Shown: positions 3,925 to 51,951 of the stretch, in pieces
How positions within the stretch are numbered: position 1 is the first letter of the stretch
Layout of the letters: each line of letters opens with the position of its first letter
Source of the DNA: Candidatus Latescibacterota bacterium
GTDB lineage: Bacteria; Krumholzibacteriota; Krumholzibacteriia; WVZY01
DNA length: 64,000 nt
Reading direction: 5' to 3'
Assembly (NCBI GenBank): GCA_963791045.1
Contig: CAWBQK010000007.1
Span: forward strand, 1-64,000
Notes under the pieces: generated by a model
The model's database searches: none
Told to the model about the DNA's origin: nothing
The model's input: only the letters and a program-made list of their open reading frames with translations
Position numbers and translations under genes: made by a program

Positions 3925-4209
3925 ACCGTGCTCCTTTCCTTCCAGTCGGGGATGGGCGAGCCTCATAATCTCATTGTATATCGCCATGTTGCTGTTGTTC
4001 TTCGGGTGTGTGGTCAAGCGGCTGAGAGCCCTCCCCGGCACGATTCGAGGCTACGCCCGGATCGCAAAACGTGTCAATAGAGAACATGGAATGGAAACGC
4101 TGGTAAATCCGCGTTGCCGTTGGTAAACTTCTCGAACCCCAGCCCCCGCCCACAAACTTGACCGCGGGGGATATTTGTATCAACCGTATTGAGACGGCAG
4201 GAGGATCCT

Positions 4210-5286
4210 ATGAGGAACATGTCACGCGTTCTGGGTGCCGCGCTGTGTGTCATTTTTGTGATGACGGCGATTCCCGCGGCGGCCGGCGTCGAGTGGTCGC
4301 ATGCAACGTACACAGACGTCATCAACAAGGCGAAGGCGGAGAACAAACACGTCTTCATCGACTTTTATACAACGTGGTGCGGACCGTGCAAGAAGCTCGA
4401 CGAAGTGACATACCAGGACGAAAAGGTCGTCGAGTTTTTGAACGGGATGATTCCCGTTAAGTGGGACGCTGAAAAGGGAGAGGGAGAAACTCTGGCGAAG
4501 CAGTTTAAAATCGGCGCCTACCCCACTCTGATACTTCTTGGCCCGGATGGCAAGGAGATCGACCGTCACCTTGGTTTCCTCGATGCGGAAAAGTTTGTGG
4601 AAGTGATGGACGGTTACAAAAATGGCATCGGCACCGTGGCGTACTACGAGGCGAAAGTAAAAGAAGACCCGAAGGACGCCGAGTCGTGGAAGATCCTCGG
4701 CACCAAATACGCCGATGCATCCCGCGCGAAGGATGCCAAGAAAGCGCTCACGACTTATCTCGACCTCTCACCCGAAGCAAGCGGTGACGACAAGGCGGAG
4801 GTGTTCTACACACTCGCCGACGCCAACTACAAAGCAAAATCATACGAACAGTCCATAAAGATCTACCAGAAAATGACGGTCGAGTTCGCGGGGACGGAAT
4901 GGCACGACCGTGCTCTGGTGATGAGCGCGTACACCTACAACAAGATGGAAGAGCCGGACAAAGCGGCCGATTCGTACATCGAGTACGTCAACCGGCACCC
5001 AGACGATCCGGCGGCAATGAACTCGTTTGCCTGGTTTGCCGCGTCAAAGGGCGTCGCTATGGAGAGGGCCCTCCCGTATGCCGAGAAAGCAGCCAGGCTG
5101 TCGAACGGCGACCCCGGTATCCTCGATACGCTCGCCGAACTCCACTACGCGATGGGAAACTACGACAAGGCGATCGAAGTCGGCCAGGAAGCCCTGGCCA
5201 AAGACCCCGGAGACGACTACTTAACGAAACAGGTCGAGAAGTTCGAAACGGCTAAAAAGGAAGGTAAGGCGCAGGCGATGAAATAG
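4210..5286 (+). CDS. Exported thioredoxin-fold (WCGPC) protein with TPR repeats
   Basis: GGAGGA RBS, signal peptide, IDFYTTWCGPCKKL active site, cis-Pro AYPT, then multiple TPRs (ILDTLAELHYAMGNYDKAIEVGQEALAKDP). Confidence 0.9.
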   Translation: MRNMSRVLGAALCVIFVMTAIPAAAGVEWSHATYTDVINKAKAENKHVFIDFYTTWCGPCKKLDEVTYQDEKVVEFLNGMIPVKWDAEKGEGETLAKQFKIGAYPTLILLGPDGKEIDRHLGFLDAEKFVEVMDGYKNGIGTVAYYEAKVKEDPKDAESWKILGTKYADASRAKDAKKALTTYLDLSPEASGDDKAEVFYTLADANYKAKSYEQSIKIYQKMTVEFAGTEWHDRALVMSAYTYNKMEEPDKAADSYIEYVNRHPDDPAAMNSFAWFAASKGVAMERALPYAEKAARLSNGDPGILDTLAELHYAMGNYDKAIEVGQEALAKDPGDDYLTKQVEKFETAKKEGKAQAMK

Positions 5287-5318: not shown

Positions 5319-5354
5319 AAAAAGACCCCGGTGTGTTCTCACCGGGGCTTTTTT
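5319..5354. terminator. Bidirectional intrinsic terminator
   Basis: A-run, CCCCGGTG/CACCGGGG stem and T-run between convergent genes. Confidence 0.85.
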
Positions 5355-5377: not shown

Positions 5378-6421
5378 TCAAGCCGCTGGGGTCATCCATC
5401 CGTTGGTCCGCGACATCACTCCCGCCTGATCGACCACAAACGCCTCGGTTGCGGGAAGCGATTCCACAAGCCCAAGGCCCCTCTCCGCGGGAAGGACAAA
5501 GACGGCGGTTGAAAGCGCGTCGGCTTCGGCAACGGACTCGGTGCGAACCGTAACGCTGACGCGGTGCCCCGGAGACAATCCGTTTGACGGGTCGACGATG
5601 TGGTGGAAGAGTCTTTCCTTGTCATAAAATATTTCGTAGCTGCCCGAAGTGGCGACGGCTCCGTCGGTCATCTCGACGATCCCGGGGAAGTTGCCGTTCT
5701 TGCGCGGATCCTCGATCGCGATAGCCCAGGGTTCGCCATCCTGCCTGGCGCCGCGTGTGCGAATGTCTCCGCCGGCGTTTATCAAATGACGGTTGGCGCC
5801 GTTGCGGGCAAGAGTCTCGGACATCCGGTCGACGATAAACCCCTTTGCGATTCCATCGAGGGTAACGCCCATCCCGGCGCGGTCGAAAGCGATCCGATTC
5901 GACGTGACCCGGATGTAGTTCATTCCGACGAGTGCGAGTGATTCGTCAATCTCGCCGCGCGACGGGGCGCCCGTTTTAGCGTGCGATTCGAAGAGGTCGA
6001 CGAGAGGTTTTACAGTGATGTCGAAGGCGCCATCGGTTGACCGGTGCAACTCCGTGGACCGCGTGACAAGCGAGGCGAGTTCAGGCGGCGGGCCATCGAG
6101 GGTTCCCTTATCGTTAAAAACAGAGACAGCCGTTGAGTTGTCATAGCGGTTGAAGATCGCGATCAACCGATCCATCTCCTCGAAGGCACGGCCTATAGAC
6201 TCCTCCGCCCTATCGCGGGAGTCGCCAATGATCGTCGCGGTGACGTAAGTGCCCATGGTCGCACGGGTTTGCTCGATCTTCAAAAGCCGGCCGTCAAGAC
6301 GCACAACCCGGTACGCCGCCTGAAGGGTGCCACCGGCGACCGCGCCGACACCGAAGACGCCGCATGCTTTCAAAAATGTTCTTCGATCGACCCGTGACAA
6401 GAATGCGCGACCACTACCCAT
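5378..6421 (-). CDS. apbE: FAD:protein FMN transferase
   Basis: TMGT, GAFDITV, LDGIAKG, NAGGD, ATSG, HIVDP and ADALSTA motifs; N-terminal twin-arginine signal DRRTFLK. Confidence 0.96.
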   Translation of the reverse strand: MGSGRAFLSRVDRRTFLKACGVFGVGAVAGGTLQAAYRVVRLDGRLLKIEQTRATMGTYVTATIIGDSRDRAEESIGRAFEEMDRLIAIFNRYDNSTAVSVFNDKGTLDGPPPELASLVTRSTELHRSTDGAFDITVKPLVDLFESHAKTGAPSRGEIDESLALVGMNYIRVTSNRIAFDRAGMGVTLDGIAKGFIVDRMSETLARNGANRHLINAGGDIRTRGARQDGEPWAIAIEDPRKNGNFPGIVEMTDGAVATSGSYEIFYDKERLFHHIVDPSNGLSPGHRVSVTVRTESVAEADALSTAVFVLPAERGLGLVESLPATEAFVVDQAGVMSRTNGWMTPAA

Positions 6422-6439
6422 GCAACATCCTCCGTGTAA

Positions 6440-6634
6440 TTAGCGATACTCCTGGTTATCCTTGTGCTGGGCGCATCCGTGACATCCGTCGTGGGTCCCG
6501 CAGGACCGGCATGCGAGCACATCCGTGTCGTGTCCCATTTCAGGCGATCCGCGGCGGACGAGCGTCTGCACGCCGACCCATATACCGATCAGTCCTACAA
6601 CGCCGATAACGGCTATCAAAAGATGATAAAACAT
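6440..6634 (-). CDS. Small membrane protein with a 4-Cys tail (NqrM-like candidate)
   Basis: ATG directly after the rnfA stop; N-terminal TM helix then CRSCGTHDGCHGC; lies between rnfA and apbE. Confidence 0.7.
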   Translation of the reverse strand: MFYHLLIAVIGVVGLIGIWVGVQTLVRRGSPEMGHDTDVLACRSCGTHDGCHGCAQHKDNQEYR

Positions 6635-6635
6635 G

Positions 6636-7217
6636 CTAGCGACCCATCCCCGCAAAACCCATAAACGCCATCGAGAGAACTCCCGCGATCATTAACGTAA
6701 GTGCCGCGCCTTTTACAACCGATGACACGTCGGCAAGCTCGAGCCGTTCGCGAAGTCCCGACATCAGAAGGAGCGCGATGGTGAAACCGACACCGGCGCC
6801 TAGCGCAAACGCGAGTGACTGAAGAAAATTGTACTCCCGGTTGGTCTGGAAAAGCGCGACCCCGAGGATTGCGCAGTTTGTCGTAATGAGCGGGAGAAAA
6901 ATGCCGAGCGCCCGAAAAAGCGCCGGGCTGAATTTCTTGATGAACATTTCGACGAGCTGAACCGAAGAGGCGATCACCACGATATAAGAAATCAGGTGAA
7001 GATAGGGCGCGTTGATTGCGACGAGAACCTTGTGGATGCCAAACGCGCAGATCGAACTTACCAGCATGACAAAGGTGACCGCAGCGCCCATTCGCGCCGC
7101 CTTGTCGATTTTGTCGGACACGCCGAGGAACGGGCAGATCCCGAGAAACATCGCGAGAACGAAGTTGTTGATTAGACACGCCTCGATAAAAATCTGGAGT
7201 GGCGATCCGGTGTTCAT
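6636..7217 (-). CDS. rnfA: Rnf electron transport complex subunit A
   Basis: NNFVLAMFLGICPFLGVS and LGIFLPLITTNCAILG motifs. Confidence 0.96.
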   Translation of the reverse strand: MNTGSPLQIFIEACLINNFVLAMFLGICPFLGVSDKIDKAARMGAAVTFVMLVSSICAFGIHKVLVAINAPYLHLISYIVVIASSVQLVEMFIKKFSPALFRALGIFLPLITTNCAILGVALFQTNREYNFLQSLAFALGAGVGFTIALLLMSGLRERLELADVSSVVKGAALTLMIAGVLSMAFMGFAGMGR

Positions 7218-7849
7218 GCTTGTTGCGCCTTTCTTCGTTCGCGAAACCAATTGAAGAGAAGCAGCCACCCGCCGAGGACAAAAAACGCCCCGCCGGGGAG
7301 AATCATTATCGACCATGGTTCAAAGCTCGAACCAAATATTGGTATTCCGGCGATCGAACCGCTTCCAAATATCTCGCGGACGAAACCAAGCGAAAAACAA
7401 GCGATGGTGAATCCAATCCCCATTCCGAGAGCGTCGAGGATTGATTTGCCGACGCTGTTCTTTGACGCGAAAGCCTCGGATCGTCCTAGAATTATACAGT
7501 TCACCACGATAAGCGAGATAAACGCGCCGAGCGCTTTGTGAATATCGAGCGAGATCGCCTGGAGCAAGTAGTCGACGACGGTGACAAACGTGGCGATAAT
7601 GAGAATAAAAGAGGCGATGCGGACCTGTTTTGGGATAAATTTTCGGACAAGCGATACCATGGTGCTCGACATCACCAGAACAAATGTCGTGGCCGCGCCC
7701 ATCGCGAGGGCGTTGACCACCGAGTTGGTGACGGCGAGGACGGGGCACATCCCGAGGAGCATCACAAAGACGGGGTTCTCCTTCCACAGCCCCTTGAGGA
7801 ATACATCCATGGTCTGTGGCCCTTTTGGCGTTGTTTTGGGCTCCGTCAT
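7214..7849 (-). CDS. rnfE: Rnf electron transport complex subunit E
   Basis: GLWKENPVFVMLLGMCPVLAVT, LIVVNCIILGR and LPGGAF motifs. Confidence 0.96.
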   Translation of the reverse strand: MTEPKTTPKGPQTMDVFLKGLWKENPVFVMLLGMCPVLAVTNSVVNALAMGAATTFVLVMSSTMVSLVRKFIPKQVRIASFILIIATFVTVVDYLLQAISLDIHKALGAFISLIVVNCIILGRSEAFASKNSVGKSILDALGMGIGFTIACFSLGFVREIFGSGSIAGIPIFGSSFEPWSIMILPGGAFFVLGGWLLLFNWFRERRKAQQA

Positions 7850-8559
7850 CTGTCGGCTCCATTTTTGAGCGTGTCGAGGTTCTTGAAGATTACCGGGATA
7901 TTGGCCGCGGTGCTCTTTTCGAGTATCGTGGTGACGGCACGCGACGAAATCGTTGCGCCGGTAATCGATTGAATCTGCCACGGGTCGGTTTTCTCGCCGG
8001 GCTTGACCAGAACGATCGGGTTGATGATGCCGGCGCCGGCGTCATCGAATTGCACTTCGAGAGCTTCGAAGTTGGCGCGGAACTCTGGGTCCTTTTCTAT
8101 CTTGTCGCCGAGCCCCGGGGTTTCTTTGCTTTCGAGCACCTTCATCCCGACTATCGCTTTTTTGGCGGGGGAGTAACCGTAAATCAGCTTCAGCACATCC
8201 TGGAAACCCGATCCCGACGCTTCCATGGCGACACCGACGAGATTCTTGTCGTCGTCGTAACAGGCGTAGAATTTCATTGCCGAAGTTTGATCACCTTCGA
8301 ACGGCTTGAGTGCGCCGTCGACGAGGGTAAAGGTGGACTTTCCCGTCGCACCCGGGACCACTTCGAAGATCGCCCGCTCGAGCGCTTCCGCCTTGTTCTT
8401 CGTGATCACGGGAAGCGTGAGTTGGAAAGTCAAAACGATCAGAATCCCGCACACCAGGCCGATCCCGCCCATGGTCGTTACCATGCGAAAGCTGTTTGCC
8501 GACTGCGACGCCCGTGGCGGTGGCGCTGTGACTGGTTTATTTTTCTCGTCTGTTGTCAT
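7846..8559 (-). CDS. rnfG: Rnf electron transport complex subunit G
   Basis: N-terminal TM helix, ETPGLG, flavinylation motif ITGATISS. Confidence 0.94.
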   Translation of the reverse strand: MTTDEKNKPVTAPPPRASQSANSFRMVTTMGGIGLVCGILIVLTFQLTLPVITKNKAEALERAIFEVVPGATGKSTFTLVDGALKPFEGDQTSAMKFYACYDDDKNLVGVAMEASGSGFQDVLKLIYGYSPAKKAIVGMKVLESKETPGLGDKIEKDPEFRANFEALEVQFDDAGAGIINPIVLVKPGEKTDPWQIQSITGATISSRAVTTILEKSTAANIPVIFKNLDTLKNGADR

Positions 8560-8579
8560 CTCAGAATTCCGGCCCTGGG

Positions 8580-9611
8580 TCAGGCCGTTGATTTCTCCGT
8601 TTTTCTAGCGCCGTAAATCTTCGGTTGCGTGAATCGGTCGATCAGAGGTGTTACCGCGTTCATGAGAAGGATCGAGTACATGACGCCTTCGGGCAGCCCG
8701 CCAAACTGACGGATGGTTACGACAAGAATTCCCACGCCCGCGCCGAATATCCAACACCCACGCGGAGTGACCGGCGAAGTGACAGGGTCGGTCGCCATGA
8801 ATATCGCGCCGAGCATCAAGCCGCCGGAGAACAGGTGGAACAGGCCGTCGGGGAAGCGTTCCGGGTTAATCAAGTGAAGGACCGTTGCGAGAACAAAGAC
8901 GGTCACGAATATAGACAGCGGAATTCGCCAGTTAAGAAACTTGCGGATGGCGAGGTACGCCCCGCCGATGAGTATCAACACGGCGCTGGTTTCCCCGAGG
9001 GATCCAGGGATCGAGCCAAAAAGAAGACCGGTAACTTCGGTCGGGATTTGGTCGAATTTCATTTGCGAAAGGGGCGTGGCCGAACTCACCGCGTCGAACT
9101 GGGGTGAGGTGAAGGGAATCGCAAAGGTATCACCCCGAAGCTCGGCGAATCGGCTGAGGTTGCCGAACGGCGCCCATGTGGTAAGCGCCACGGGAAAACA
9201 TGCTTGCAAGAAAGCCCGTCCGGTGAGAGATGGGTTGAACACATTGTGACCGAGGCCACCAAAAATCACTTTGCCAAAAGTGATCGCCGCCGCGCCTCCG
9301 ACAAACGCCATCCACGCGGGGAGTCCCGGGGGCAGGGTCAGCGCGAGGAGTACGCCGGTCAAGATCGCGCTACCATCGGTGATCGTGCTCTTTTCGAACA
9401 CCCGCCGGCCCGTAAAAATCCACTCGGCCGCGATCGCCCCGAGAACACAAGAAACGATGACGAGGAGGCCGCTCAGGCCAAAAAAGTACACGGATGCGCC
9501 GACAACGGGGAGCAGCGCGTAGAGCACGTGGCGCATGATCGCCGGTGTGTCGACGGGACGTTTCACATAGGGTGACGTCGAAAGAACGAGTCGGGGTGCA
9601 TCGCGGTTCAT
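8580..9611 (-). CDS. rnfD: Rnf electron transport complex subunit D
   Basis: FGGLGHNVFNP, flavinylation motif VSSATPL, GSLGETS, FMATDPVTSP, PEGVMYSILLMN. Confidence 0.96.
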   Translation of the reverse strand: MNRDAPRLVLSTSPYVKRPVDTPAIMRHVLYALLPVVGASVYFFGLSGLLVIVSCVLGAIAAEWIFTGRRVFEKSTITDGSAILTGVLLALTLPPGLPAWMAFVGGAAAITFGKVIFGGLGHNVFNPSLTGRAFLQACFPVALTTWAPFGNLSRFAELRGDTFAIPFTSPQFDAVSSATPLSQMKFDQIPTEVTGLLFGSIPGSLGETSAVLILIGGAYLAIRKFLNWRIPLSIFVTVFVLATVLHLINPERFPDGLFHLFSGGLMLGAIFMATDPVTSPVTPRGCWIFGAGVGILVVTIRQFGGLPEGVMYSILLMNAVTPLIDRFTQPKIYGARKTEKSTA

Positions 9612-10990
9612 TTTGCTCCGGCTTTCTCTCCCGCTGCGCGCTCTTCGCGGGCCTTTTCTTCTTTTTCTCTCGCTTGCTTTTCGCGGAGCATCGCCTTTGC
9701 CACTCTGAACCGCTGGACGAGCGGGATGTTTGACGGGCACACATACGAGCACGATCCGCATTCAATGCAATCCATTATATTATAGTCGAGCATGTCCGCG
9801 AAGCGTCCCACGCGGGAGAGCATCCCAAGCTGGCTGGGGTTGAGAAATACGGGGCAAGCGCCGAGGCATGCCGAACACTTGATGCACGGGTACTCGCGCC
9901 GTGACATTACTTCTTTTTCAGTGAGGCAGACGATACCCGACGTGCCTTTCAAGACGGGTACTTCGAGATTATACTGGGGCGTTCCCATCATCGGTCCGCC
10001 GAAGAGGACTTGTCTCGCGTCGTCGGTCAACCCGCCGCAGTAGGAGAGCACATCGTGGAGTTTGGTTCCGATCGGTATAAGAAGCGTCGACGGCGTGTCG
10101 ATGCCCGCGCCCGTCACGGTGACGACCCTCTCTATCAAAGGCTGCCCGAACTCGAAGAGATCTCCCACTCCGGCGACGGTTGCCACGTTTTGGACAACCA
10201 CTTGTACGTCTATTGGCAAGTTGCCCGATGGGACTTCGCGGTCGATAACGGCCGAGATGAGCATCTTCTCGGCGCCCTGCGGATATTTTGTCTGGAGCGG
10301 AATCAACTCGCATGGCAAATCGGCCGGGATTCTGTCTCTCAATATCTTTATGGCGTCCCACTTGTTGGTCTCAACGCCTATAAATGATTTCTCAGATCCG
10401 AGAATCTTCTGAATGACACGGACGCCAAGAAAGATCTGGTCGGCCCACTCGAGCATTACTCGATGGTCGCTCGTCAAATACGGCTCGCACTCACAGCCGT
10501 TGACAAAGAAATATTGAACCCGTTTACCTTCGGGGGGTGCGAGCTTTACATGAGTGGGAAAAGCGGCTCCGCCCAGACCCACAAAACCGCCGTCCTGGAT
10601 TTTTTGAAGGAGTTCTTTGGGGTTGAGGCGCTCCCAATCAATGGGGCGTTCGTCGAAAAGCGTCTGCGGAGAGTGCGGGTCGCTCTCTATCACGATCGAT
10701 TCGACGAGGCGGCCCGAAGGGTGGTGTCTGTTTTCGATGGCGGTAACTTTACCGGTGACCGACGCGTGCAGAGGAACCGATACAAAGCCGTTCGCGGTGG
10801 CGATAACCTGCCCGCGGTATACTTTGTCGCCGACCGACACTGTCGATTCCGAAGGCGCCCCCAGATGCTGGCTAAGGGGCAGGATTACCTCGTCGGGAAC
10901 GGGTATCCGCTCGATTTTCTGACCTTCCGTCAGATGCTTGTGCCCCTCCGGATGAACTCCGTGGCGAAATGTCTTTGTTCGCTCAGTCAT
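9608..10990 (-). CDS. rnfC: Rnf electron transport complex subunit C
   Basis: QHLGAP, GLGGAAFPTHVK, NGCECEPYLTSD, KYPQGAEK, GGPMMG; two 4Fe-4S motifs (CIKCSACLGACP, CIECGSCSYVCP). Confidence 0.97.
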   Translation of the reverse strand: MTERTKTFRHGVHPEGHKHLTEGQKIERIPVPDEVILPLSQHLGAPSESTVSVGDKVYRGQVIATANGFVSVPLHASVTGKVTAIENRHHPSGRLVESIVIESDPHSPQTLFDERPIDWERLNPKELLQKIQDGGFVGLGGAAFPTHVKLAPPEGKRVQYFFVNGCECEPYLTSDHRVMLEWADQIFLGVRVIQKILGSEKSFIGVETNKWDAIKILRDRIPADLPCELIPLQTKYPQGAEKMLISAVIDREVPSGNLPIDVQVVVQNVATVAGVGDLFEFGQPLIERVVTVTGAGIDTPSTLLIPIGTKLHDVLSYCGGLTDDARQVLFGGPMMGTPQYNLEVPVLKGTSGIVCLTEKEVMSRREYPCIKCSACLGACPVFLNPSQLGMLSRVGRFADMLDYNIMDCIECGSCSYVCPSNIPLVQRFRVAKAMLREKQAREKEEKAREERAAGEKAGAK

Positions 10991-13900
10991 CACCGGTCTC
11001 TTTAGTCGGTGTCGTCTGCTTGTTTCGCTCCAGGAACTCTCCTAGTGTCATTCCAAAAAACTCGTTGTCCTGCCCGTACCCACAAAGATGGAGAAGGGTC
11101 TCGGTAAGCCTCTTTTCGACCGTGTGATCGAGTTTTGGTGGCGGAGGCGGTTCGCGAAGTTCGTCGCCGGCTTCGCCGGATTTGTCGTCGGTGTCCGGTT
11201 TGAATTCGGGCATGATCGTTTCCGAGAGCTCGCGGAGGTAATTCCAGAACTCGAGTCCGTCTTCGACCGCGTCGATCAGCGCGGGAGACACGATAGCGAG
11301 AAAATGCATCTGGTTTTCATCGACGATGTCGATATACGGCTCGTAATCGACCCGGTCGGCGTCGTCTATTTCGAGGAACTCGGCGAGGTGTTTCATTTGA
11401 TCGTTGAGATGTCCCCGAGGCACGACTTTGAAGTGCCGCTGGAAACGCGCCTCCCGGAAGGCCCAGTCCGCCATGGTGAGAGCCGGCGCGATCGATTTCT
11501 CATACCCCGCCGGATCCTTTATCATTACATCCTGACTCGTCCAGTTCCTGTCCGGATCCGGGTTGCCCTCGAGCGACAACATCGCGTCCTCGCGGTCGGG
11601 ATCGAGTTTGAACAGCGGGAACGCTCGGCTCTCATACGCCACCCGCGCCTGGTCGATAACGTGCTCGGGCGCGACGCCGCTGGTCTGCGGATCGGGCGCG
11701 AAAATATGAAAAAGCGAGGGGCGCCGTTGCCGCAATCCCTCGGAGACACCCTGGATCAGGTGACCGGGATTGCCAACACTGGTTTGAAGAACATACACAT
11801 CTCGTTGTGACAAAAGAAGATACCCGAGGTTGTTCTCGGCCTGGACGCCGGCGAGATGCCCCATGTCGGTGTCGGGCTCCCCTGAGTCGTCGTCTTTTAT
11901 CGTCACAGCCTGCGTGTTAATAACCACAACACGTATCGGGTGATCGCTCGTCAAGAGACGGCCGATCTCCTCGCAATTGGTCGATCCGCTGTGCGTAATC
12001 ACAATGACCGGCGGGAGGAGATTTCTTTCGGCGTCGCTCAAACTGGTCTGGTTGAAGTTTTCAAAGAACTCGTCGTGTTCGTACGGGTCGTATTTGTCCG
12101 CGGCTTCGAGTTCCGCCTGACGGCAGAGTTTGAATTCCTCGACCATCTGCCGCGCGATTCCTTCGAAAACACCCTCGGCGAGCGCCGGCGCGTCACCGGG
12201 AAGGTGGCTGACCCATGGATGTTGATGCGGGTTGTACGGATAGGTTCCACTCCAGTAAGCCGTGCCGCCCGGGTCGACGGTAATCGCCATGCGTGCGCGA
12301 CCGGTTCCGCTTCCGCCTTCGAGATAGAGCCGGCGCTGTTCCTTGAGCTGGCCAAGAAGGCCGGTCAAGCGGGCGAGCTGATCCTTGTCGACATCTCGTG
12401 TGTCGTTGTCATCGTCAATCAGCCTGGCGAGCGATTCGGCTGAGAAGCCTTCGCGGCGAACCCGCGACAGTTGCTGTCCGAATCTCTCAAAGTCGTTGAT
12501 TTGAAGTGCCCGCGCGACCTTGCCCTGTATCCTTTGTTCGAGCTCTTCAATCAATGTGTCGAGACGCTTGACGTGCGCGTCGAATCTCGGGCGCATAACC
12601 GATTCGACCGTTGCCGTGACGAGGTGGATCGCCGTTTTTACGCTGTTCCCGGGGAATGCCGCATCGCCGCCGACCATCGAGTGGTACGCCGTCTTGTTGA
12701 GAAGCCTGTAGACATTCTCATCCGGATCTTCTTTTGAAATCGATTTCTCAATTTCTTCACTCGACACTTCTGGAAGCGACATCTGGAAATCCCAGATGTG
12801 GCTGTTCTTTTTGAGAAGTTCGGGTGTCTGGTCGATCCAGGTGTAAGCGTCGTTCGGGCACACTTCGATACAGAGTCCGCATCCGGTGCAGCTCAGTGGG
12901 TTGTGCGCTATCGACAAAAGCCCGCCGCTTCCTTTGGTGTCTTTGTGCGGTGTATTGAAGAACCTGTCGGTCTTGCTCACCGGGTGGTGTTCCACAAGCC
13001 GGTGAATCGGTTCGAATTCCTTTGTGAGCGCCTCGAGCTTCTCACCTTCGAGACCCATCTTATCGGTGAGCCTTGAGAACGCCTCTTTGAGGACCGCTCC
13101 CAATTCGTGGTACTGACCGAGTTCGTCCTTGAGAATCAGAGTGTAAGCCTGTTTGGCAAGATGCTCGGCGGCGCGTTGCATCTGGACCATTGGGGTCCCG
13201 TTCTCTTCGCAGTGTTTCATTGCCGTCTGTAAAAGCGCCGGTATACTCTGAAGCGAAGGGGGAAGCGCCGAGTCGGGGCAGAGCGACCAGCACAGTCCGC
13301 ACCCTTCACAGCTCGTCGGATTCCACAGAGGTATCCGGAGCCGATAAGGCGACATGTCGCGAAACGCGCTGCTCCCCGCGGGCATTATTCCCGTCGCGAG
13401 ATACGGATCGGTTATCGTTTCATCCTGCTCGCCCGCGTTGTAGAGATATCCCACCGAATGCCAGAAACGGTTCACGTCGAACACGGTGTGATCGTGCTGG
13501 TCGACCTGTTGGACCGTCCATGGGGCCTGCGATTCGGTCGGCATGGGACGCCGGTCCTTGTCGAGCGCCTCCCAGTCGAGAAGCGTAAGTTCGTCGGTTC
13601 CGCGCATGACACAATTCGAGATATCCTCAATGAGGTAGTGCGACGGTCCGAAGATGTGGGAAAGGCGTTTGCCAAAATGTTCGAGAAACGTTTTTAGATC
13701 GTCGTCCGATACGAGTTCGCCGACCTTGAGATACGCGCCGAAGAGCGCCCAGATGACAAGCTGATCCACAAACGATGGACGCGAAGCTGTCTCCGAGGCG
13801 ATCTTTCGAGAATCGATCGTGTAGATCCGGATGTCGTGCTTGCGAATCCAGCCGATCGTTCGATTGGAAAGTGACTGCCAGAAATCCTCGGGACTCCGGT

Positions 13901-15662: not shown

Positions 15663-15692
15663 CAGAGAATATCAATCGGTTCGGTCGGTGGT

Positions 15693-16534
15693 TCAGGTTT
15701 GCCCGCTTTCCGGGGTGTTTTTGAACTGTTGTCCGTCCACCCACGCGATCGCGCCCGTCGGACACCGCCGGATAACATCCGGCGATTCCATGTGGAGCAT
15801 ATCGGTGTTAACGGCAGGAAGGTTGTTTTTCATCCTGACAAGCCCTGGGGAGAATCGGCCACGCATTTGCCGCAGGCCGTGCAAGCTACCTTGCAAAGAT
15901 CGAGTACCTTGTCTCCCTCGAGTTCGGATTTACATTGAACGAGAACATGCTGTCTTGCGGGAACAAGTTCGATGATGCCCTTCGGGCAAATCCTCACACA
16001 GTCCCCACACGCCGTACACTTGTCAAAGTCGATTATCGGGAGCCCGGTCGGGCCCATGGTGATCGCGTCAAAATCACAAACCACCTGGCAGTCGCCAAAT
16101 CCGAGGCAGCCGTAACGGCATCCTTTGACCGCCTCCGCCGCCGCGACCGCCGCCCGGCAAGAAGGGAAGCCCTTGTATTCGGCCATCTGGATGGCGACGT
16201 TAGTGCCGCCCCGCGCAATGGAGACGTGCGATCTTGCGATCGAGCGTGCCCGCGTCGACGCCAAGAAAATCCGCCACCTCCGCCGCCGTTTCGGCTCCTC
16301 CGACCGTGCATTGGCTGGGCTGGATTTCTCCTGCGACCGCTTTTTCGGCGAACATCCGGCAACCGGGGAGTCCGCACGCGCCGCAGTTTGTGTTGGGGAG
16401 CATGTCGAAGACATCGTCGATTCTCGGGTCTTCGAACACTTTGAGTTTGCGTTCGCCACGGCGAGCACGACGGCCAGCACGCTCGCAAGACCCAGCAAAA
16501 ATCCGATGGCTATGACGTTTTGCATTTCTGTCAC
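15693..16534 (-). CDS. rnfB: Rnf electron transport complex subunit B (about 3 indels)
   Basis: N-terminal TM, then in alternating frames VFEDPRIDDVFDMLPNTNCGACGLPGC, CRYGCLGFGDCQVVCDFDAI, CTACGDCVRICP, CKVACTACGKC, RRCPTGAI. Confidence 0.9.
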
Positions 16535-19164
16535 TAGTTGAATTTGGCCGCGCGTTGGACGAGATCGTCCAGGCCCGTTTCATCGGGATTCCCCGGTTTC
16601 CCCGGGTGGATAATGTGCACGGGGCATTTCTCCGCGGCGGTTACCAGCTCGCGGAACGTTCCGGCCGAGGCGTCCTTGACAAACGCCTGTTTGTTTTCGT
16701 TGTAGGCGAACATTTTACCGTTGAGGTTCGTGCACTCGTTGCACGTAGTACACAGAGGCGTGTCGATATAGGGTTCATCGAACGAAATCGCCTCGTCCTC
16801 TTCTTCTTCGGTTTCGACTTCCGGGGCGGCCGGCGCATCCGTTGTGTCCGTCGAGTCGGTCGATGGCGCGGGAGCCGGAGTCGTCGGCGCCAACGGGGCG
16901 TCCATTCCGATTCCGCCTCCGTAGACGATTTGATTGACGATCCGCTGGACCACCTCGCGTGTCAGCTCGCCGATATTGCGTCCAAGCTGCGAATCGAATT
17001 TCTTCTTAATGGCGTCGACTTCTGTTTGCTTGTTGTCTTCCAGCTTTTGCTTCTCGCCTGAAAGCGCGTCGTCGACAAACGAATTGTTAACACCGCCGTT
17101 TTCCTGGATGTTCCGCCAGAAAGAGCCGCACGACTCAACCGCGCCGAGAACGGCCCTGGTCACGACGATTCGGCTGATCCGCCCGTCCGTCCCAACGCCG
17201 GCGATATACGGAATCCTGGTCTCGGCCGTATCCGCGTCCAGCTTGAGGTACTCGTCGACCGGGATCATGTCCTTGTGCCATTTGTCGGCCGGCACGCGCC
17301 AAAAGTGTTGCGAGAGACGAATGTCGCCGAAGAGAAAATCGGCCGGCGTGAACGCAAGGTCGATCGATTTCTCGTCTCCATTCGCGTTCTGGTACGAAAA
17401 CGCGTCAACGGACCACTCGTGGTCGATTCGAGGGTTGTCGGAGACGCTTGTACGGTCGTAAAGCGTACGCCCTTTGCCGGGGTCGTATGTGAATACGGGG
17501 AACACCCGGGACTCGGTCGCCGTCGCCCCGCAGTGGAACGTGGTGAGCCCCGGTTGGTCATCCCGGTTTCCTTCGAAAACGCAAAAAACCGCCGGACCAG
17601 AATAACTGAGACCCTCCATGAGACTTTTCTGAAGAAGCGGTGCATTGGAAACGGGGCACTGAAGCACGTAAATGTCGTCGAGCGCCATCACCATTTTTGC
17701 CAGCCGCGTTTGCCAGCCAAAAATGATGTCCGCACTTTCGCTCGTGCGCTCGGAATCCAGAAGGCTGTCGAGTTGAACGAGAATCTTGACGGGGATTTCC
17801 GACGCAAGTACATCGAAGAGCTGACCCTTGTCGCGATTTGCAAAGAACTCGCCTGTCAACACGAGAAGGATCGGCGGACAGAGTTCGACCTCGGTCGAAG
17901 TCAAATGCGCGAGATCGAAATGATCGAAAAACGCGTCGTGAATCTGTTCGTGGTAACGGTTCGCCACTTCCAGCCGGGCAATTTCGACCGCTTTGAAGAA
18001 TTCGACGAGCGTCTTCATCTGTTCATTGTAGCGGGTGAACACCGCGGCGCAGTCATTCTCGATGATCTCGATTTGGAGGGGTTGATTCGTTTTCTTGGAT
18101 TTTCCTTTGTGCGAAGTCACCTTCGTTATGTCGAAGAGCGGTTTGATGCGGTCGATAACCTCCAGCGCGCCGGTGATCCGCTTGCGCCTTGATTCAGGGA
18201 TCGGATCGCCGAGGTCGCTCTCTTTGAGAATCGAGGACATCGCTTGGAAATCGAGTTCTTCTTCATCGCCGGACCCCACGGACGCCTTGAGATGTTCCGG
18301 GCTCTTGGCCTCGGGAGAGTGTATGAAATCGGCGGCGAGGATTTCCCGGAGCTCGAAAATCAGCATATCGAGATCCTGGCGCCACGCCGTGCAGTGCTTT
18401 CTCCACTGGAGCTGTACGGCGGCTTCGAAGAGCCGGCGAGACGTCGTCTTGTCGCAGACGAGAACCTCACCGTCGGAGCGGAGTGCACCGCGTGCGACAT
18501 TCATGTCCTGCTTCAACATCTGCTTTTCGTCGACGACGAGACGGGTTGCCGCGACGATGTCGTCGGCCGCCTGGTTCCACAAGATGGAAAGACCCGTGCC
18601 CGGCTTTTTCTCGGCAAGTTCTTTTACCTTCGCCTCGAGTTGATAGAGGTGCCTCGTCAATCTCTGGCCTTCGTCGCTCGAGTCCGCGACGGCGGAAATA
18701 ACCTCGTCGACGATCGCGGTCAGGGTCTTCGCCGGCGTCTCCCTGTCGCCTCCGGTCAGGCACAGCGGGTAGTCGTAACGAATATTCGAAAGGTCTTTGA
18801 AGCGTGCAATCAGGGCCGGGGTCGGCCACGACTCTGATGCGTGCGTGACCGGCTCCGAGCCGACATTCCCGTACAGACAAAAACGCCGCAGTTCGGCGAA
18901 AGTGGCGTCGGCTTCATGGCCGTCGTCCTCTCCTTGCTCGGCGTCTCCGGGCGTTTCCGTTTCCCACGCGAGTGCGGGTTCAACGGGAAGCCGCGACGGT
19001 GCGGAAGTTGTATCTGCGCCCGCCGCGGTTGAGTCTGTATTTTCCGTCAGCTGTTCTGTTTGATTCGCCGGATTGCTGTCTTCACTTTTTGCCGGTTCCG
19101 GATCCTTCACCGTTCCCACTCTTAACCACCTCGGCGGCATCCGTCTGGATACCGAATTTGTCAA
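16534..19164 (-). CDS. Degenerate PFOR beta-like domain protein with C-terminal ferredoxin (start uncertain)
   Basis: CPPILLV...LASEIPVKILV...YVLQ...GLSYSGPAVF...ATESRVFPVFTYDP parallels the C-terminal domain of the 1559-aa protein; acidic Pro/Thr linker; C-terminal CTTCNEC...AEKCP. Confidence 0.8.
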   Translation of the reverse strand: MTNSVSRRMPPRWLRVGTVKDPEPAKSEDSNPANQTEQLTENTDSTAAGADTTSAPSRLPVEPALAWETETPGDAEQGEDDGHEADATFAELRRFCLYGNVGSEPVTHASESWPTPALIARFKDLSNIRYDYPLCLTGGDRETPAKTLTAIVDEVISAVADSSDEGQRLTRHLYQLEAKVKELAEKKPGTGLSILWNQAADDIVAATRLVVDEKQMLKQDMNVARGALRSDGEVLVCDKTTSRRLFEAAVQLQWRKHCTAWRQDLDMLIFELREILAADFIHSPEAKSPEHLKASVGSGDEEELDFQAMSSILKESDLGDPIPESRRKRITGALEVIDRIKPLFDITKVTSHKGKSKKTNQPLQIEIIENDCAAVFTRYNEQMKTLVEFFKAVEIARLEVANRYHEQIHDAFFDHFDLAHLTSTEVELCPPILLVLTGEFFANRDKGQLFDVLASEIPVKILVQLDSLLDSERTSESADIIFGWQTRLAKMVMALDDIYVLQCPVSNAPLLQKSLMEGLSYSGPAVFCVFEGNRDDQPGLTTFHCGATATESRVFPVFTYDPGKGRTLYDRTSVSDNPRIDHEWSVDAFSYQNANGDEKSIDLAFTPADFLFGDIRLSQHFWRVPADKWHKDMIPVDEYLKLDADTAETRIPYIAGVGTDGRISRIVVTRAVLGAVESCGSFWRNIQENGGVNNSFVDDALSGEKQKLEDNKQTEVDAIKKKFDSQLGRNIGELTREVVQRIVNQIVYGGGIGMDAPLAPTTPAPAPSTDSTDTTDAPAAPEVETEEEEDEAISFDEPYIDTPLCTTCNECTNLNGKMFAYNENKQAFVKDASAGTFRELVTAAEKCPVHIIHPGKPGNPDETGLDDLVQRAAKFN

Positions 19165-20098
19165 AGGCCTTGTCCAACGTGTTTTCTATTTGCTCACTGC
19201 ACGGCCCGCGTTTTGGTTTCTTGAGATCCTCATAGCGGGGCACCGTTTCATCACGGAAGAAGATACCAACCGGGACGACCTCTTCGAGGCTCGCCAGTTC
19301 TCTCGCCCTGTGGATGTCCAGCGGATCGTGCTCTTCGTGGTTCTTGTAGATCCTGCCAATGGTGTCGCTGATATTTATCCCGTTTTCATGCTTGAGAAGC
19401 AGAACCTTGTCGGGGTTCGATACCACCGAGGAAAAGAAGTCGGGCATGAAATGTGGGCACCGCTGCAGGATTCGAACAAACGAGAACCCTTTATGATGAA
19501 ACGCCTGATGAATGACATCATACAACAATTCAGGAATCCACTCCACGACTTGTGCGACGAATGAGATATTTGATACGCCGAGCGTGGTGCTGAGCGGATT
19601 GAGCGGTCCCAGCGTCTGGCCTCGCGGAGTGGTATTGGTCTTGTACCCCGTGGGAGTCGTTGGGGATGCCTGTTTTTTTGTCAGGCCGTAGATACTGTTG
19701 TCATGGAGCATGCATGTGATGTCCATGTTCAAGCGGATCGCATGGATCCAGTGGGCCGTACCGATACTGCAACAGTCGCCGTCCCCTGTGTTGACAAACA
19801 CATGGAGGTCGGGTCGCCGCATTTTGATCCCTTCGGCGACGGGAAGCGCCCGGCCGTGGAGACCGTGAAAACCATATGTCCCCATATAATGGGGGAATCT
19901 CGCCGCGCAGCCGATGCCGGAAACAAAAGTGGTTTTCTCGGGCGGAAGCTGCTCGTCGCGGCAGAGCCTCTGAACGGCGGCGAGGATTGCGTTGTCGCCG
20001 CATCCCGGGCACCAGCGGGACATCGATCCCTGGTAGGCTTCCAGAGGTTTGTACTCATCCTCAAGATTCAGAATGCATTGTGTTTTTAGACCAAACAT
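19082..20098 (-). CDS. korB: 2-oxoacid:ferredoxin oxidoreductase beta subunit (TPP-binding; substrate not determined)
   Basis: WCPGCG, SGIGC, HGLHGR, GDGD...N-x2-YGLTKKQASPT, ILQRCP. Confidence 0.93.
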   Translation of the reverse strand: MFGLKTQCILNLEDEYKPLEAYQGSMSRWCPGCGDNAILAAVQRLCRDEQLPPEKTTFVSGIGCAARFPHYMGTYGFHGLHGRALPVAEGIKMRRPDLHVFVNTGDGDCCSIGTAHWIHAIRLNMDITCMLHDNSIYGLTKKQASPTTPTGYKTNTTPRGQTLGPLNPLSTTLGVSNISFVAQVVEWIPELLYDVIHQAFHHKGFSFVRILQRCPHFMPDFFSSVVSNPDKVLLLKHENGINISDTIGRIYKNHEEHDPLDIHRARELASLEEVVPVGIFFRDETVPRYEDLKKPKRGPCSEQIENTLDKAFDKFGIQTDAAEVVKSGNGEGSGTGKK

Positions 20099-20102
20099 CG
20101 GA

Positions 20103-22010
20103 CTACCCCTCGCCTATGATGGTTTTGAGACGACGCCGGATTTCAGACTCGATCGCGCCCGGTCTGAATGGCTGCCCGTGAACCCGCGTGAACGAGTCGA
20201 TGTCGAGCAAATACCTGGCGCGGAGAAGCCACCCCAGGTTGGCGAATCTCCGGTTATCCTCATTGATGAGTTCGTCGTCGAGACTGTCGGAGTAATTGAT
20301 TTCGACGCTGAATACGTGTTTGAACCGCTCCATGATCTGTTTGAGTCCCGGAGCCATGGGCTGGAGGAACTTGAGATGGAGCGACGACACCTTGTGACCG
20401 TCACGTTGGAGGCGTTGGACGGCTTCCTCTATTGCGCCCTTGGTGCTGCCCCAGCCAATGACGAGGATGTCACCTTCCGGGTCGCCAAATACTTTTGGCG
20501 TCTTCAGTGTTTTTTGGAATGCAGCGAGTTTGAGGCTCCGGCTTCGGCAGCCTTCTTCGTTAACACCGGGCTCGTAGGCCACCTTGCCCTCGCGTGTGTG
20601 GGCCAGGCCGGTAAGCGTGTACATGCCGTTGGGTTGGCCTGGGATAAAGCGTTGCGACAGGCCTGTCTTGGGGTCCCAGTCGTAGGGCGGGTGTCCCTCG
20701 GGCGCTGGGCTCTGGTCCATCGGCGGCATTGCCCATTCTTTGTTGAATACCGGGCGCGTGAAAGCCTGCTGTCCGGTAGCGAGGTTGGCGTCGCTGAGGA
20801 CGACAACGAGCGTTCGGAATGTCTCGGCGATCTTGCGGGCGGTGATCATAGAGTAGAAACAGTCTTCGATGGTCGCCGCAGCCATGACGATCTTCGGCGC
20901 GTCTCCCGGCGTTCCAAAGATCGACGCAAGGAGGTCCCCCTGTTCGACCTTTGTCGGGAGGCCCGTGCTGGGGCCGCCGCGCTGAACGTTGACCAGGACG
21001 AGAGGAATCTCTCCCATGACCGACAAGCCCATCAGTTCTGTTTTGAGCGCCATGCCCGGACCCGATGTGATGGTGACGGCGCACTTGCCGGCGTACGAAG
21101 CGCCAAGGGCAAAGGCGCACGCGGCGATTTCATCCTCGGCCTGGTGAACGACGCCGCCGACTTCTTCGAAGATGTCGCTGAGGTAATGGGAAGCGGACGT
21201 CGCTGGTGTGATCGGGTACATCGCACACACTTCCATGCCCGATGCGACGACGCCCAAAGCGAGCGACGTATTGCCGTTCATCACGATTTGCGGATCTGTG
21301 ATTCCGCATGACGCCACGCCGAACTTGATGCCAAGATACTTTTCCGCCCAGTTGTAACCCGCTTCGATCAGGTCGATGTTGGGTTTGATGACCTTGTCGC
21401 CCTTTTTCTTGAACTTTTCGACGATTTGGTGGCGGGCGAGCTCGATATTGCGCGTGTAAATCGAGCAAAGCATCCCGAGCACGAACATGTTTTTGCCGCG
21501 CTGCGGATTGTCGACAAGCTTGCGGCATTCCTCCTCAAGAGGTACCTCGTGAACGCGGTAGCCCTCGGCCGTCATTTTGCCGACCATCTGTGTGTATGCT
21601 TCGACGACGTCGGGGTCTGTGTGGGTTTTCCACATGCTTTCGAGGAGGATGGTGCAACCGGGTTTGAACTTGCCCGTCGACATCCCTCCCATAAGAACTT
21701 GTTCGTTGAAAGCGACGACGAGATCGGCGAGGTCGCCGGCATTTGTGATAGGGAAGGACCCTATGCGGATGCGGATGCCGCTTGCGCCGGCGGCGCTGCG
21801 AACCGGCGGCTGAATTTCCGCCGGGATAATCTCGACAGTCCAGACACTGTTGCCCATCTTTGCCGAAACGGTGCCGAACATCTGGCCGGCGGTTTGCGCG
21901 CCTTCACCGGAGTCGGAAACGATTTCAACAATATGGGAGTCCACGATCGTGGGCTCTACAGTCTGTGCCTGCGCGGTGTCTTTGAGTTCTGGATCGGAAG
22001 ATGAGCTCAT
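20103..22010 (-). CDS. korA: 2-oxoacid:ferredoxin oxidoreductase alpha subunit (gamma-alpha fused type)
   Basis: DSGEG N-terminal gamma domain, MYPITP, QAEDEIAA, TSGPG, QRGGPSTGLPTK, GWGST. Confidence 0.94.
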   Translation of the reverse strand: MSSSSDPELKDTAQAQTVEPTIVDSHIVEIVSDSGEGAQTAGQMFGTVSAKMGNSVWTVEIIPAEIQPPVRSAAGASGIRIRIGSFPITNAGDLADLVVAFNEQVLMGGMSTGKFKPGCTILLESMWKTHTDPDVVEAYTQMVGKMTAEGYRVHEVPLEEECRKLVDNPQRGKNMFVLGMLCSIYTRNIELARHQIVEKFKKKGDKVIKPNIDLIEAGYNWAEKYLGIKFGVASCGITDPQIVMNGNTSLALGVVASGMEVCAMYPITPATSASHYLSDIFEEVGGVVHQAEDEIAACAFALGASYAGKCAVTITSGPGMALKTELMGLSVMGEIPLVLVNVQRGGPSTGLPTKVEQGDLLASIFGTPGDAPKIVMAAATIEDCFYSMITARKIAETFRTLVVVLSDANLATGQQAFTRPVFNKEWAMPPMDQSPAPEGHPPYDWDPKTGLSQRFIPGQPNGMYTLTGLAHTREGKVAYEPGVNEEGCRSRSLKLAAFQKTLKTPKVFGDPEGDILVIGWGSTKGAIEEAVQRLQRDGHKVSSLHLKFLQPMAPGLKQIMERFKHVFSVEINYSDSLDDELINEDNRRFANLGWLLRARYLLDIDSFTRVHGQPFRPGAIESEIRRRLKTIIGEG

Positions 22011-22526: not shown

Positions 22527-22544
22527 TTGTGAAACCCTTCTCAA
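22527..22544. promoter_or_regulatory. Rex-type operator candidate
   Basis: TTGTGAA-ACCC-TTCTCAA, one mismatch to TTGTGAA-N4-TTCACAA, in the divergent region between the OFOR-Rnf operon and pfkB. Confidence 0.5.
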
Positions 22545-28543: not shown

Positions 28544-28548
28544 ATACC

Positions 28549-28581
28549 AACCGGGCGGCGGCATGTGTCGCCGCCCGGTTT
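28549..28581 (+). terminator. Strong hairpin between the two giant genes (terminator or mRNA stabiliser)
   Basis: AACCGGGCGGCG...CGCCGCCCGGTT with only a short T tail. Confidence 0.65.
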
Positions 28582-28663
28582 CGGAACAAAGGGAGTATGG
28601 ACAGGACAACCACATCCTTCGCGTAAGTCAAATTTCGCGTCCTTGTACCAGGGAGTATTTGCT

Positions 28664-51193: not shown

Positions 51194-51363
51194 AAAATGG
51201 CGGACGCCAATGCTGTTGGGGCGGGTACGTCCGCGACGCGGATACAGGACGTTTATATAGTGTGATACAAATCGATAGAGGCCGTCTGCTGACCGCCGGA
51301 ACCGACTTTTAGCGACGGCTGGTAACCGAGGAGCAATCCTCAAATAACTTGGAGGTCCGTACG

Positions 51364-51936: not shown

Positions 51937-51951
51937 GAGGAAGGGGGTACG

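Follow-up and report, generated by a model that had tools for sequence, protein, structure and literature searches.

The 64 kb window analysed here (the whole stretch of DNA, taken from the start of contig C7 of a Candidatus Latescibacterota genome of 3.66 Mb that is 81% complete) carries a twelve-gene operon on its minus strand, running from 22010 to 5378 in the order korA-korB-X-rnfB-Y-rnfC-D-G-E-A-small Cys protein-apbE. In this operon the 2-oxoacid:ferredoxin oxidoreductase (OFOR) KorAB is interleaved with the Rnf complex and with two proteins, X and Y, that are homologous to pyruvate:ferredoxin oxidoreductase (PFOR) and have lost its catalytic motifs. Rnf is a ferredoxin:NAD+ ion pump of six subunits, normally fed by free ferredoxin. 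We give slightly better than even credence to a reading in which the operon encodes a dedicated relay for anoxic 2-oxoglutarate oxidation, with a ferredoxin arm on X and with KorAB loosely attached. Such a relay would be an energy-conserving, low-oxygen route for oxidising 2-oxoglutarate: KorAB would decarboxylate it to succinyl-CoA (a step that the sequence supports, with 2-oxoglutarate as the presumed substrate) and, because KorAB has no ferredoxin domain of its own, would pass the electrons to the single [4Fe-4S] ferredoxin on the flexible arm of X, of some 50 residues. X and Y would form the two halves of a pseudo-PFOR scaffold descended from an active PFOR of 1650 amino acids (aa), their homology being evident and their dimer conjectural, and KorAB would probably attach to this scaffold only loosely, not as a subunit held at 1:1. 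Y would serve as an Rnf-specific adapter, usually adding two [4Fe-4S] clusters (its co-occurrence with Rnf is observed, its docking supposed), and electrons would enter RnfB, whereupon Rnf would reduce NAD+ and pump Na+ or H+. If this is true, organisms that also possess the ordinary dehydrogenase would gain an ion-pumping step in their oxidation of 2-oxoglutarate.

The sequence-only reading that preceded this analysis had described a single-strand order of overlapping or nearly abutting genes, and all twelve genes were indeed located with gaps of at most 30 nt: the operon junctions span -38 to +30 nt, with overlaps at 6 of 11, and the gaps flanking rnfB are +8 and +30 nt (recomputed from the ATG at 16525 and the stop at 15693). 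Its complete Rnf complex is also borne out, A, B, C, D, E and G all being matched, with RnfB frameshifted here and intact in relatives. The position it gave to rnfB, apart from rnfC and between two PFOR-like genes, is right, whereas the uninterrupted rnfB frame is not, since three shifts break it. The order rnfB-CDGEA is in itself ordinary for Rnf, for example in Caldithrix abyssi (PMC5317091; PMC3534657, both available in part), and it is the insertion of Y between rnfB and rnfC that is unusual. The six subunits, apbE and the BCDGEA order are common to this operon and to known Rnf systems (C. abyssi Cabys_3129-3134; the Clostridium tetanomorphum and Acetobacterium woodii structures), from which it differs in the 1559-aa pseudoenzyme between rnfB and rnfC and in the OFOR and ferredoxin-arm protein upstream.

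KorA carries the motifs YPITP, AEDE and QRGGP, and its closest entry in the PDB is 6n2n_A (E 6.9e-80), the 2-oxoglutarate:ferredoxin oxidoreductase (OGOR) of Magnetococcus; KorB retains WCPGCG, GIGC..R, GDGD and the C-terminal Cys, and scores 241.8 bits against TIGR02177, under the cut-off of 261.9. Judged by its motifs, KorAB is catalytically complete and OGOR-like. Across loci, YPITP is present in 99/99 KorA and an Arg follows GIGC in 115/115 KorB, while 93 of 99 KorA have Ile after P[AS]E; the Ile and the Arg are both as in 6n2n, and 2-oxoglutarate is the putative substrate. In four loci sucCD follows Y (L091, L119, L151 and L196, in the last of which, as in L091, the genes lie inside the cassette). 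The two-subunit enzymes of Magnetococcus marinus (6N2N) and Sulfolobus tokodaii (5B46) share the III-I-II plus VI domain order, the motifs and the Ile/Arg pair. These two enzymes work with free ferredoxin. The KorA clade studied here differs from them in being nearly always followed by X.

Y aligns along its entire length with PFOR, as compared with the structures 6cin and 7plm. YPITP, the GDG..N motif, the cysteines of domain VI and the catalytic Glu are all missing from it, both 2x[4Fe-4S] cluster motifs of domain V are retained, and there is no C-terminal ferredoxin. Among 57 Y proteins, YPITP, GDG, the domain VI cysteines and the ferredoxin are each found in none and domain V in 53, and the catalytic Glu column is absent in 31/31 Y homologues; several Y proteins also lack domain III. 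X consists of a degenerate domain V, helical inserts, a beta-like domain VI, stalk helices, a disordered linker and a ferredoxin (PF13370, residues 800-853). Its four ferredoxin cysteines are present in 151/151 proteins (a set that includes near-identical ones), its domain V cysteines in 0/151, and YPITP, GDG and the domain VI cysteines each in 0/151; some X still carry dead alpha/gamma domains (P0053, P0095, L053). X and Y have therefore lost cofactors in complementary fashion, the ferredoxin being kept by X and domain V by Y, and the tallies uphold the earlier claim that both are non-catalytic PFOR derivatives with retained Fe-S sites. The length of 876 aa given for X holds if translation starts with the TTG at 19164; its entry in the protein database (P0001) has 868 aa, and the X of the closest relative aligns from residue 16, i.e. 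the GTG at 19119, making about 861 aa the likely length. The nearest named X homologues are Candidatus Latescibacterota records.

The X model has a predicted local distance difference test score (pLDDT) of 82, falling below 50 in a linker of about 50 residues (741-794), and its best Foldseek matches are the PFOR structures 6ciq and 6cio; the model of Y 720-1548 has a pLDDT of 81 and matches 6cin (E 3.8e-14). Among the matches listed, only PFOR-family folds fall below E 0.001 for either model, and HHalign places the homology of X with Y in residues 724-1532 of the latter (probability 100, E 3.5e-69). No membrane helix is predicted in X or Y. The helix at X 721-750 has an occupancy of 0.94-1.0 in X linked to Rnf and of 0.01-0.23 in X linked to NfnAB (the two forms are described below); its candidacy as an Rnf-specific element is weakened by a similar helix in Nfn-linked long PFORs. 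The ESM Atlas holds just automatic "ferredoxin family" clusters and related clusters of TPP_enzyme_C plus Fer4_13. A complex prediction for X and Y, each cut to the stretch from domain VI to stalk (499 + 501 aa, from the relative L030, 48 paired rows), scored 0.00 twice and weighs neither way.

It is hardly credible that Y, or X, is a working pyruvate:ferredoxin oxidoreductase, as both have been annotated in genome papers. Matches to Pfam and NCBIfam PFOR models invite that annotation, and PMC6315080 (available in part) so reads them; the TIGR02176 score is, however, 164 bits against a cut-off of 911, and YPITP, GDG..NT and the domain VI cysteines, absent from every X and Y, occur in 15, 14 and 15 of 15 intact long PFORs. 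Fold and domain order are those of homodimeric PFOR/NifJ (6CIN, 1B0P) in Y and in the core of X, which are respectively 35% and 26% identical to the long PFOR described below, whereas every motif of the thiamine pyrophosphate (TPP) site, along with the domain VI cysteines, is missing. The "PFOR" proteins of tubeworm and clam symbiont reconstructions cannot, by known motifs, bind thiamine, and their annotation requires correction.

An intact relative of the two proteins points to their origin. When 51 genomes were searched for rnfD and for a portion of Y, a second long protein came to light about 4.3 kb upstream of another rnfD, and 18 regions were retrieved. Eleven of these regions (L199-L209) read rnfB-[PFOR of 1635-1656 aa]-rnfCDGEA, with catalytic motifs intact and a C-terminal ferredoxin like that of X. 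In two others the intact long PFOR lies beside a GltD-like gene (L210:5112-12859, L211:5975-14145), which in L210, the one scanned, is a single-chain NfnB-NfnA fusion; the long PFOR thus separately shows a choice between Rnf and Nfn as partner. The remaining regions comprise two long PFORs that lack the ferredoxin and three further Y loci. The Rnf-linked long PFOR, apparently uncharacterised, differs from solved PFORs in its extra helical inserts, stalk and C-terminal ferredoxin, and is 32-36% identical to Y over about 1500 residues and 24-28% identical to X over its C-terminal 500-700 residues. A FastTree built on the region common to all places X (15 rows), Y (10 rows) and the intact enzymes (16 rows) in one group each, with broadly similar X and Y subtrees, and X-Y sequence distances give the top correlation among 21 gene pairs (rho 0.88, 20 loci). 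The simplest history, as suggested by these comparisons, is that the long PFOR was duplicated, that the copies lost Fe-S cargo in a complementary way and that KorAB was recruited, with the order of events unrooted.

The distribution of the system was surveyed in a genome collection, with at least 585 relatives of X, and in metagenomes, with at least 533 loci; counts are from the best 80 loci of each, the metagenomic set being biased to Gammaproteobacteria. Among the 80 genome loci, 30 have rnfB and then Y, 34 have nfnA/nfnB without Y, and 16 belong to neither class (mostly contig ends); no locus among the 80 has both forms. Since the Nfn loci have X but never Y, and no locus combines the two forms, X travels with KorAB and Y with Rnf. 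X directly follows korB in 70/80 genome loci (of the other ten, six are too short, one has an intervening gene and in three the neighbour was not scored as korB), and Y directly follows rnfB in 30/30 genome loci and in 44/44 metagenome loci with room for it. The Rnf form occurs in Latescibacterota-like genomes, Gammaproteobacteria, Calditrichota, Bacteroidota with Rhodothermales, KSB1 and Planctomycetota, so that the linkage of X and Y to rnf anticipated by the sequence-only reading is conserved across at least six phyla. Closer to this genome, 15/40 relatives have a strong Y match (>700 bits), and seven long contigs of relatives show the identical order as far as they extend. An apparently rearranged operon in two close relatives was ruled out, the breaks in G010 and G012 being runs of 100 N that join scaffolded pieces.

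Association of KorAB-X with NfnAB is about as frequent as with Rnf, a point absent from the sequence-only reading. The Nfn form, ordered nfnAB-korAB-X and with both nfn genes in 32/34 loci, was found in Alpha-, Beta- and Gammaproteobacteria, Acidobacteriota, Chloroflexota, Actinomycetota, Verrucomicrobiota and Myxococcota; one representative of each gene scores 382 bits against NF004862 (cut-off 220) and 584 bits against TIGR01316 (cut-off 472). A match to rnfD over cut-off is present in 4/25 Nfn-type genomes versus 24/25 Rnf-type genomes. A quick KorA tree with very distant outgroups nests the Nfn form, as a single group with support 99, among the Rnf forms, and the swap from Rnf to Nfn consequently looks like a single event followed by spread. 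Named species offer material for experiment, in that Endothiovibrio diazotrophicus has X and Photobacterium sagamiensis has the Nfn form, and since homologous proteins have already been detected in symbiont proteomes the system is testable.

Linkage of X and Y to rnf is strong but not absolute. In the metagenomes, rnfB lies next to X in 52 loci and not in 19, nine being too short. Separated X genes occur in genome locus L111 and metagenome loci L123-L156, which belong to Ca. Parabeggiatoa and related gammaproteobacterial loci; at three such loci, rnf or Y genes lie upstream on the opposite strand.

Homologues of the cassette are expressed in tubeworm symbionts, as reported in papers that were available in part. 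In the Escarpia laminata symbiont, the expressed "rTCA cycle cluster 2" (rTCA being the reductive tricarboxylic acid cycle) comprises sucD, sucC, por, rnfB, por-like, korB and korA (PMC6315080, Rubin-Blum et al. 2019), and this cluster and its Riftia counterpart have the same gene order as here, korA-korB-por-like-rnfB-por-(sucC-sucD). It is this cluster, and not a "related four-gene kor set" of the kind suspected by the sequence-only reading, that matches the operon. The KorABCD clusters of tubeworm symbionts, with hdrABC, flxABCD or tfrAB, likewise interleave an OGOR with an electron-transfer complex, for which direct shuttling has been proposed; they differ in consisting of other genes, with no Rnf inside and no pseudoenzymes, and are a separate cluster in Table S1 of PMC6315080. 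No small korC/korD, hdrABC or tfrAB genes lie in the present operon. PMC6315080 treats "por" as PFOR and describes the rnf clusters as co-transcribed with two por genes, and together with PMC11636981 and PMC7787665 it proposes a working PFOR and ordinary recycling of ferredoxin by Rnf, whereas we propose a dead Y and a tethered ferredoxin. The available text and supplements of these three papers make no mention of motif loss, a tethered ferredoxin, descent from a long PFOR or an Nfn form. Nor is the system described in keyword passages of PMC13768988, PMC12174285, PMC12337175, PMC13147460, PMC5317091, PMC3534657 and PMC4914600, and a keyword look-up in the 2025 RNF/NQR review (PMC12174285) returned no "supercomplex", "oxoglutarate" or "additional subunit". 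We found no description of X and Y as pseudoenzymes in the literature, with the proviso that the novelty may be affected by figures, supplements and subscription papers that we have not seen.

In Riftia, KorA(3), KorB(3) and an adjacent "PFOR-like ferredoxin", WP_006475426.1, fall together (log fold changes -2.62, -2.57 and -1.91; PMC11636981), and this last protein ("KorG", EGV52902.1) belongs to the X family by sequence. Normalised spectral abundances in the symbiont (%orgNSAF; PMC7787665) are 0.022-0.032 for KorA, 0.016-0.031 for KorB, 0.034-0.042 for X, 0.044-0.063 for a 1520-aa protein that we take as Y, and 0-0.006 for both RnfB (EGV52904) and RnfC (EGV52915); by position, length and name, EGV52905 is taken as Y and EGV52308 as the long PFOR. 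That homologous genes are co-regulated and made as proteins in the tubeworm symbiont is therefore supported. From the data of PMC7787665, an experiment that did not fractionate membranes, we calculated ratios of homogenate to fraction in sulfur-rich samples: X and Y stand at about 1.3, KorA, KorB, SucC and Mdh at about 0.2, the long PFOR at about 0.9, and another RnfC and NuoD at about 2-3.

These data bear on the proposal of the sequence-only reading that KorAB, X, Y and Rnf form a stable stoichiometric supercomplex with a continuous Fe-S wire, which we consider unlikely. Conserved interleaving of overlapping genes across phyla favours it, as do the X helix at 721-750, present in the Rnf-type and missing in the Nfn-type, and the Riftia ratio of X and Y, which have no membrane helix yet stand nearer to membrane complexes than to soluble enzymes. 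The ratios of KorA and KorB, however, resemble those of soluble enzymes and not those of X and Y; the disordered arm of X, as modelled, looks more like a shuttle than a fixed wire; some loci of sulfur-oxidising symbionts have a split operon; and the cassette RnfB and nearby RnfC are about tenfold less abundant than X and Y, a disparity that speaks against a supercomplex with strict 1:1 stoichiometry. The long PFOR presumed to be intact is likewise 10- to 15-fold above its RnfC (PMC7787665).

We regard as less likely still a further possibility, in which X and Y would act in assembly, protection or regulation (by shielding from oxygen or sensing redox state, say) and electrons would travel by free ferredoxin or flavodoxin. 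The planctomycete Y that persist without domain V cysteines, the X that persist away from rnf in some symbiont loci, and the excess of X and Y over Rnf in the proteome (PMC7787665) are what such a role might lead one to expect. Yet no part of X is better conserved than the ferredoxin (column conservation of 0.66-0.89, against about 0.2-0.6 elsewhere, among Rnf-type X), which is retained in both the Rnf and Nfn forms, the contexts that need an electron carrier, and no recurring separate ferredoxin gene family appears in the 80 loci among open reading frames (ORFs) of at least 70 aa.

Several points also weigh against the ferredoxin-arm relay that we prefer. The roles of the KorA Ile and KorB Arg in selecting 2-oxoglutarate are presumed ones. 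The X-Y distance correlation may arise from shared fast rates and shared transfer alone. A Y-borne Fe-S wire is not universal, since the domain V cysteines are gone in 4/57 Y (L082, L087, L093, L166), all still between rnfB and rnfC. X lacks a downstream rnfB in 19/71 assessable metagenome loci and an adjacent korB in 17/59, and stands alone in L111. The low RnfB and RnfC in Riftia (PMC7787665) sit awkwardly with any relay ending in Rnf, and rnfB could be a true pseudogene in the present genome.

This last point turns on three one-base frameshifts, near 16478, 16203 and 15838 in the three-frame translation. When the intact RnfB of a relative was used in tblastn, three abutting pieces were recovered at 60-74% identity. 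Two of the three breaks are one-base differences inside homopolymer runs, and the base absent at 15838, the only break informatively covered, is present in a close relative's contig (one contig only, at a depth of 2.7). In 7/7 relatives with long contigs RnfB forms an unbroken ORF, as it does in Rnf-type genome loci wherever the contig spans rnfB. Because of the homopolymer runs, the restored base and the intact relatives, the frameshifts are probably assembly or sequencing errors. Other split genes lie at C11:310.3k and C11:336.9k (counted over 36 test genes, too few for a rate).

A broader reading, which we put forward tentatively and with less than even confidence, is that the operon belongs to a family of 2-oxoacid:NAD+ redox pumps docked to the membrane, with a PFOR-derived dimer serving as the built-in input module of Rnf. 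The ancestral module would have been an active long PFOR with its own swinging ferredoxin; duplication would have produced two pseudoenzymes that split the Fe-S cargo, with catalysis outsourced to KorAB and the substrate now 2-oxoglutarate; and one lineage would have dropped Y and Rnf, re-plugging KorAB-X into the putatively bifurcating NfnAB. If so, many facultative anaerobes and chemosynthetic symbionts would possess a modular, ferredoxin-independent coupling site in the TCA cycle, and an Rnf input module built of pseudoenzymes, and evolutionarily traceable, would represent a new way of wiring Rnf.

The surrounding physiology was also considered. Both sucA and citrate synthase are present in the genome, as are a heme-copper oxidase, a Rex-type gene, a second Rnf and nfnAB. 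sucA scores over cut-off in 41/50 carriers (23/25 Rnf-type, 18/25 Nfn-type), which rules out the cassette as a replacement for 2-oxoglutarate dehydrogenase. FNR-like boxes lie upstream of 9/29 Nfn-type and 6/23 Rnf-type loci, against 0.1 and 0.9 expected from mononucleotide shuffles, and upstream of 1/24 metagenome loci, against 0.5 expected. In this operon, a palindrome upstream of korA (Table 1) is one of four such sites in the genome, with none in two shuffles; it could serve the divergent pfkB instead. Regulation and the presence of sucA fit a low-oxygen alternative to the dehydrogenase. Genome-wide, TTGTGAA-N4-TTCACAA-like sites with at most two mismatches number 32, versus 3-4 in shuffles, and one lies near the citrate synthase gene.

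The direction of the reaction is a question separate from that of relay versus supercomplex, and in this organism it is probably oxidative. The reverse, for which we see a modest chance, would have ion-driven Rnf reduce the ferredoxin arm and KorAB carboxylate succinyl-CoA, within the rTCA cycle, the reversed oxidative TCA (roTCA) cycle or anaplerosis. It draws on the presence of the cassette in autotrophic symbionts, on the Magnetococcus OGOR as the closest solved KorA, on the citrate synthase of this genome, which is compatible with roTCA, and on several Gammaproteobacteria in which the cassette stands beside sucCD and a NuoF-linked set resembling soluble fumarate reductase. Against it, PF16114 (ATP-citrate lyase, ACL) has no match in this 81%-complete genome and matches in 7/51 carriers, by a search whose control set yielded no positive; most carriers are from heterotrophic groups and also have sucA; in Riftia the cassette genes fall as the rTCA operon rises (PMC11636981); and Rubin-Blum et al. 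favour an oxidative role for this KorAB (PMC6315080). Sulfur-oxidising symbionts may nevertheless run the reaction in reverse. In the gammaproteobacterial loci L066 (3195-6870), L076, L092, L122 and L135, frdB-like, frdA-like and nuoF-like genes lie directly upstream of korA, which from their sequences possibly encode a soluble NADH-dependent fumarate reductase.

Table 1 Features of the operon and its flanks, with coordinates in the 64 kb window
Feature	Position	Strand	Description and evidence
Palindrome	22527..22544		Rex- or CRP/FNR-type; ~0.5 kb upstream of korA; 13/14 match
korA	20103..22010	-	alpha (domains III-I-II), 635 aa; TIGR03710 512.7 bits, cut-off 482.75
korB	19082..20098	-	beta (TPP, proximal [4Fe-4S]), 338 aa; PDB 5b46_B, 6n2n_B
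X	16534..19164	-	dead C-terminal half of long PFOR + single-cluster ferredoxin; likely start GTG 19119
rnfB	15693..16525	-	~277 aa; three one-base frameshifts; three-frame translation
Y	10983..15662	-	dead full-length long PFOR, 1559 aa, domains I-II-III-IV-V-VI + stalk; alignment to 6cin, 7plm
rnfC	9608..10990	-	TIGR01945 532 bits, cut-off 246
rnfD	8580..9611	-	TIGR01946 336 bits, cut-off 207
rnfG	7846..8559	-	PF04205; TIGR01947 91 bits, slightly under cut-off 102
rnfE	7214..7849	-	PF02508 220 bits; 75-81% identity to relatives
rnfA	6636..7217	-	TIGR01943 241 bits, cut-off 229
Small Cys protein	6440..6634	-	64 aa; one membrane helix (KD19 2.45) + Cys cluster
apbE	5378..6421	-	flavin transferase; PF02424 239 bits
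Terminator-like hairpin	5325..5348	both	bidirectional; closes operon; top-scoring of 35 hairpins found

At the 3' end of the operon, the small Cys protein has no Pfam match and is kept at the same operon position in relatives; by analogy only, it may be an NqrM-like Fe-S maturation factor, the genes for NqrM and ApbE coming after those of nqr operons (PMC12174285, available in part). Flavinylation motifs are present, SSAT in RnfD and TGAT in RnfG, and apbE lies in the same operon. A thioredoxin-TPR protein at 4189-5286 converges on the operon, the terminator being common to both. A sigma-70 scan for internal promoters gave 6 sites versus 6.1 expected and so does not discriminate; on the minus strand, one site lies upstream of korA and one within rnfD.

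Other Rnf- and Nfn-like genes were noted in passing. The second rnf cluster of the genome (C11:304886-313475) has a multiheme-cytochrome-like gene, apbE and a frameshifted rnfC, and its RnfB, of 698 aa, is fused to a GltD/NfnB-like domain; a separate nfnAB-like pair lies at C9:37586-39916. Two Calditrichota loci (L090:1377-2735, L097:4411-5748) have, upstream of korA, an extra, circularly permuted RnfC-like gene with its barrel-sandwich domain at the C-terminus. Elsewhere in the window, consecutive porC-like, GltD-like (561 aa), porA-like and porB-like genes at 51349-55687 may be read, from their sequences, as a further OFOR, one in which an NAD(P)-linked subunit takes the place expected for delta, and 23758-36739 holds ORFs for secreted proteins of laminin-G, immunoglobulin (Ig) and FlgD/type IX secretion system (T9SS) type, seemingly broken into overlapping pieces.

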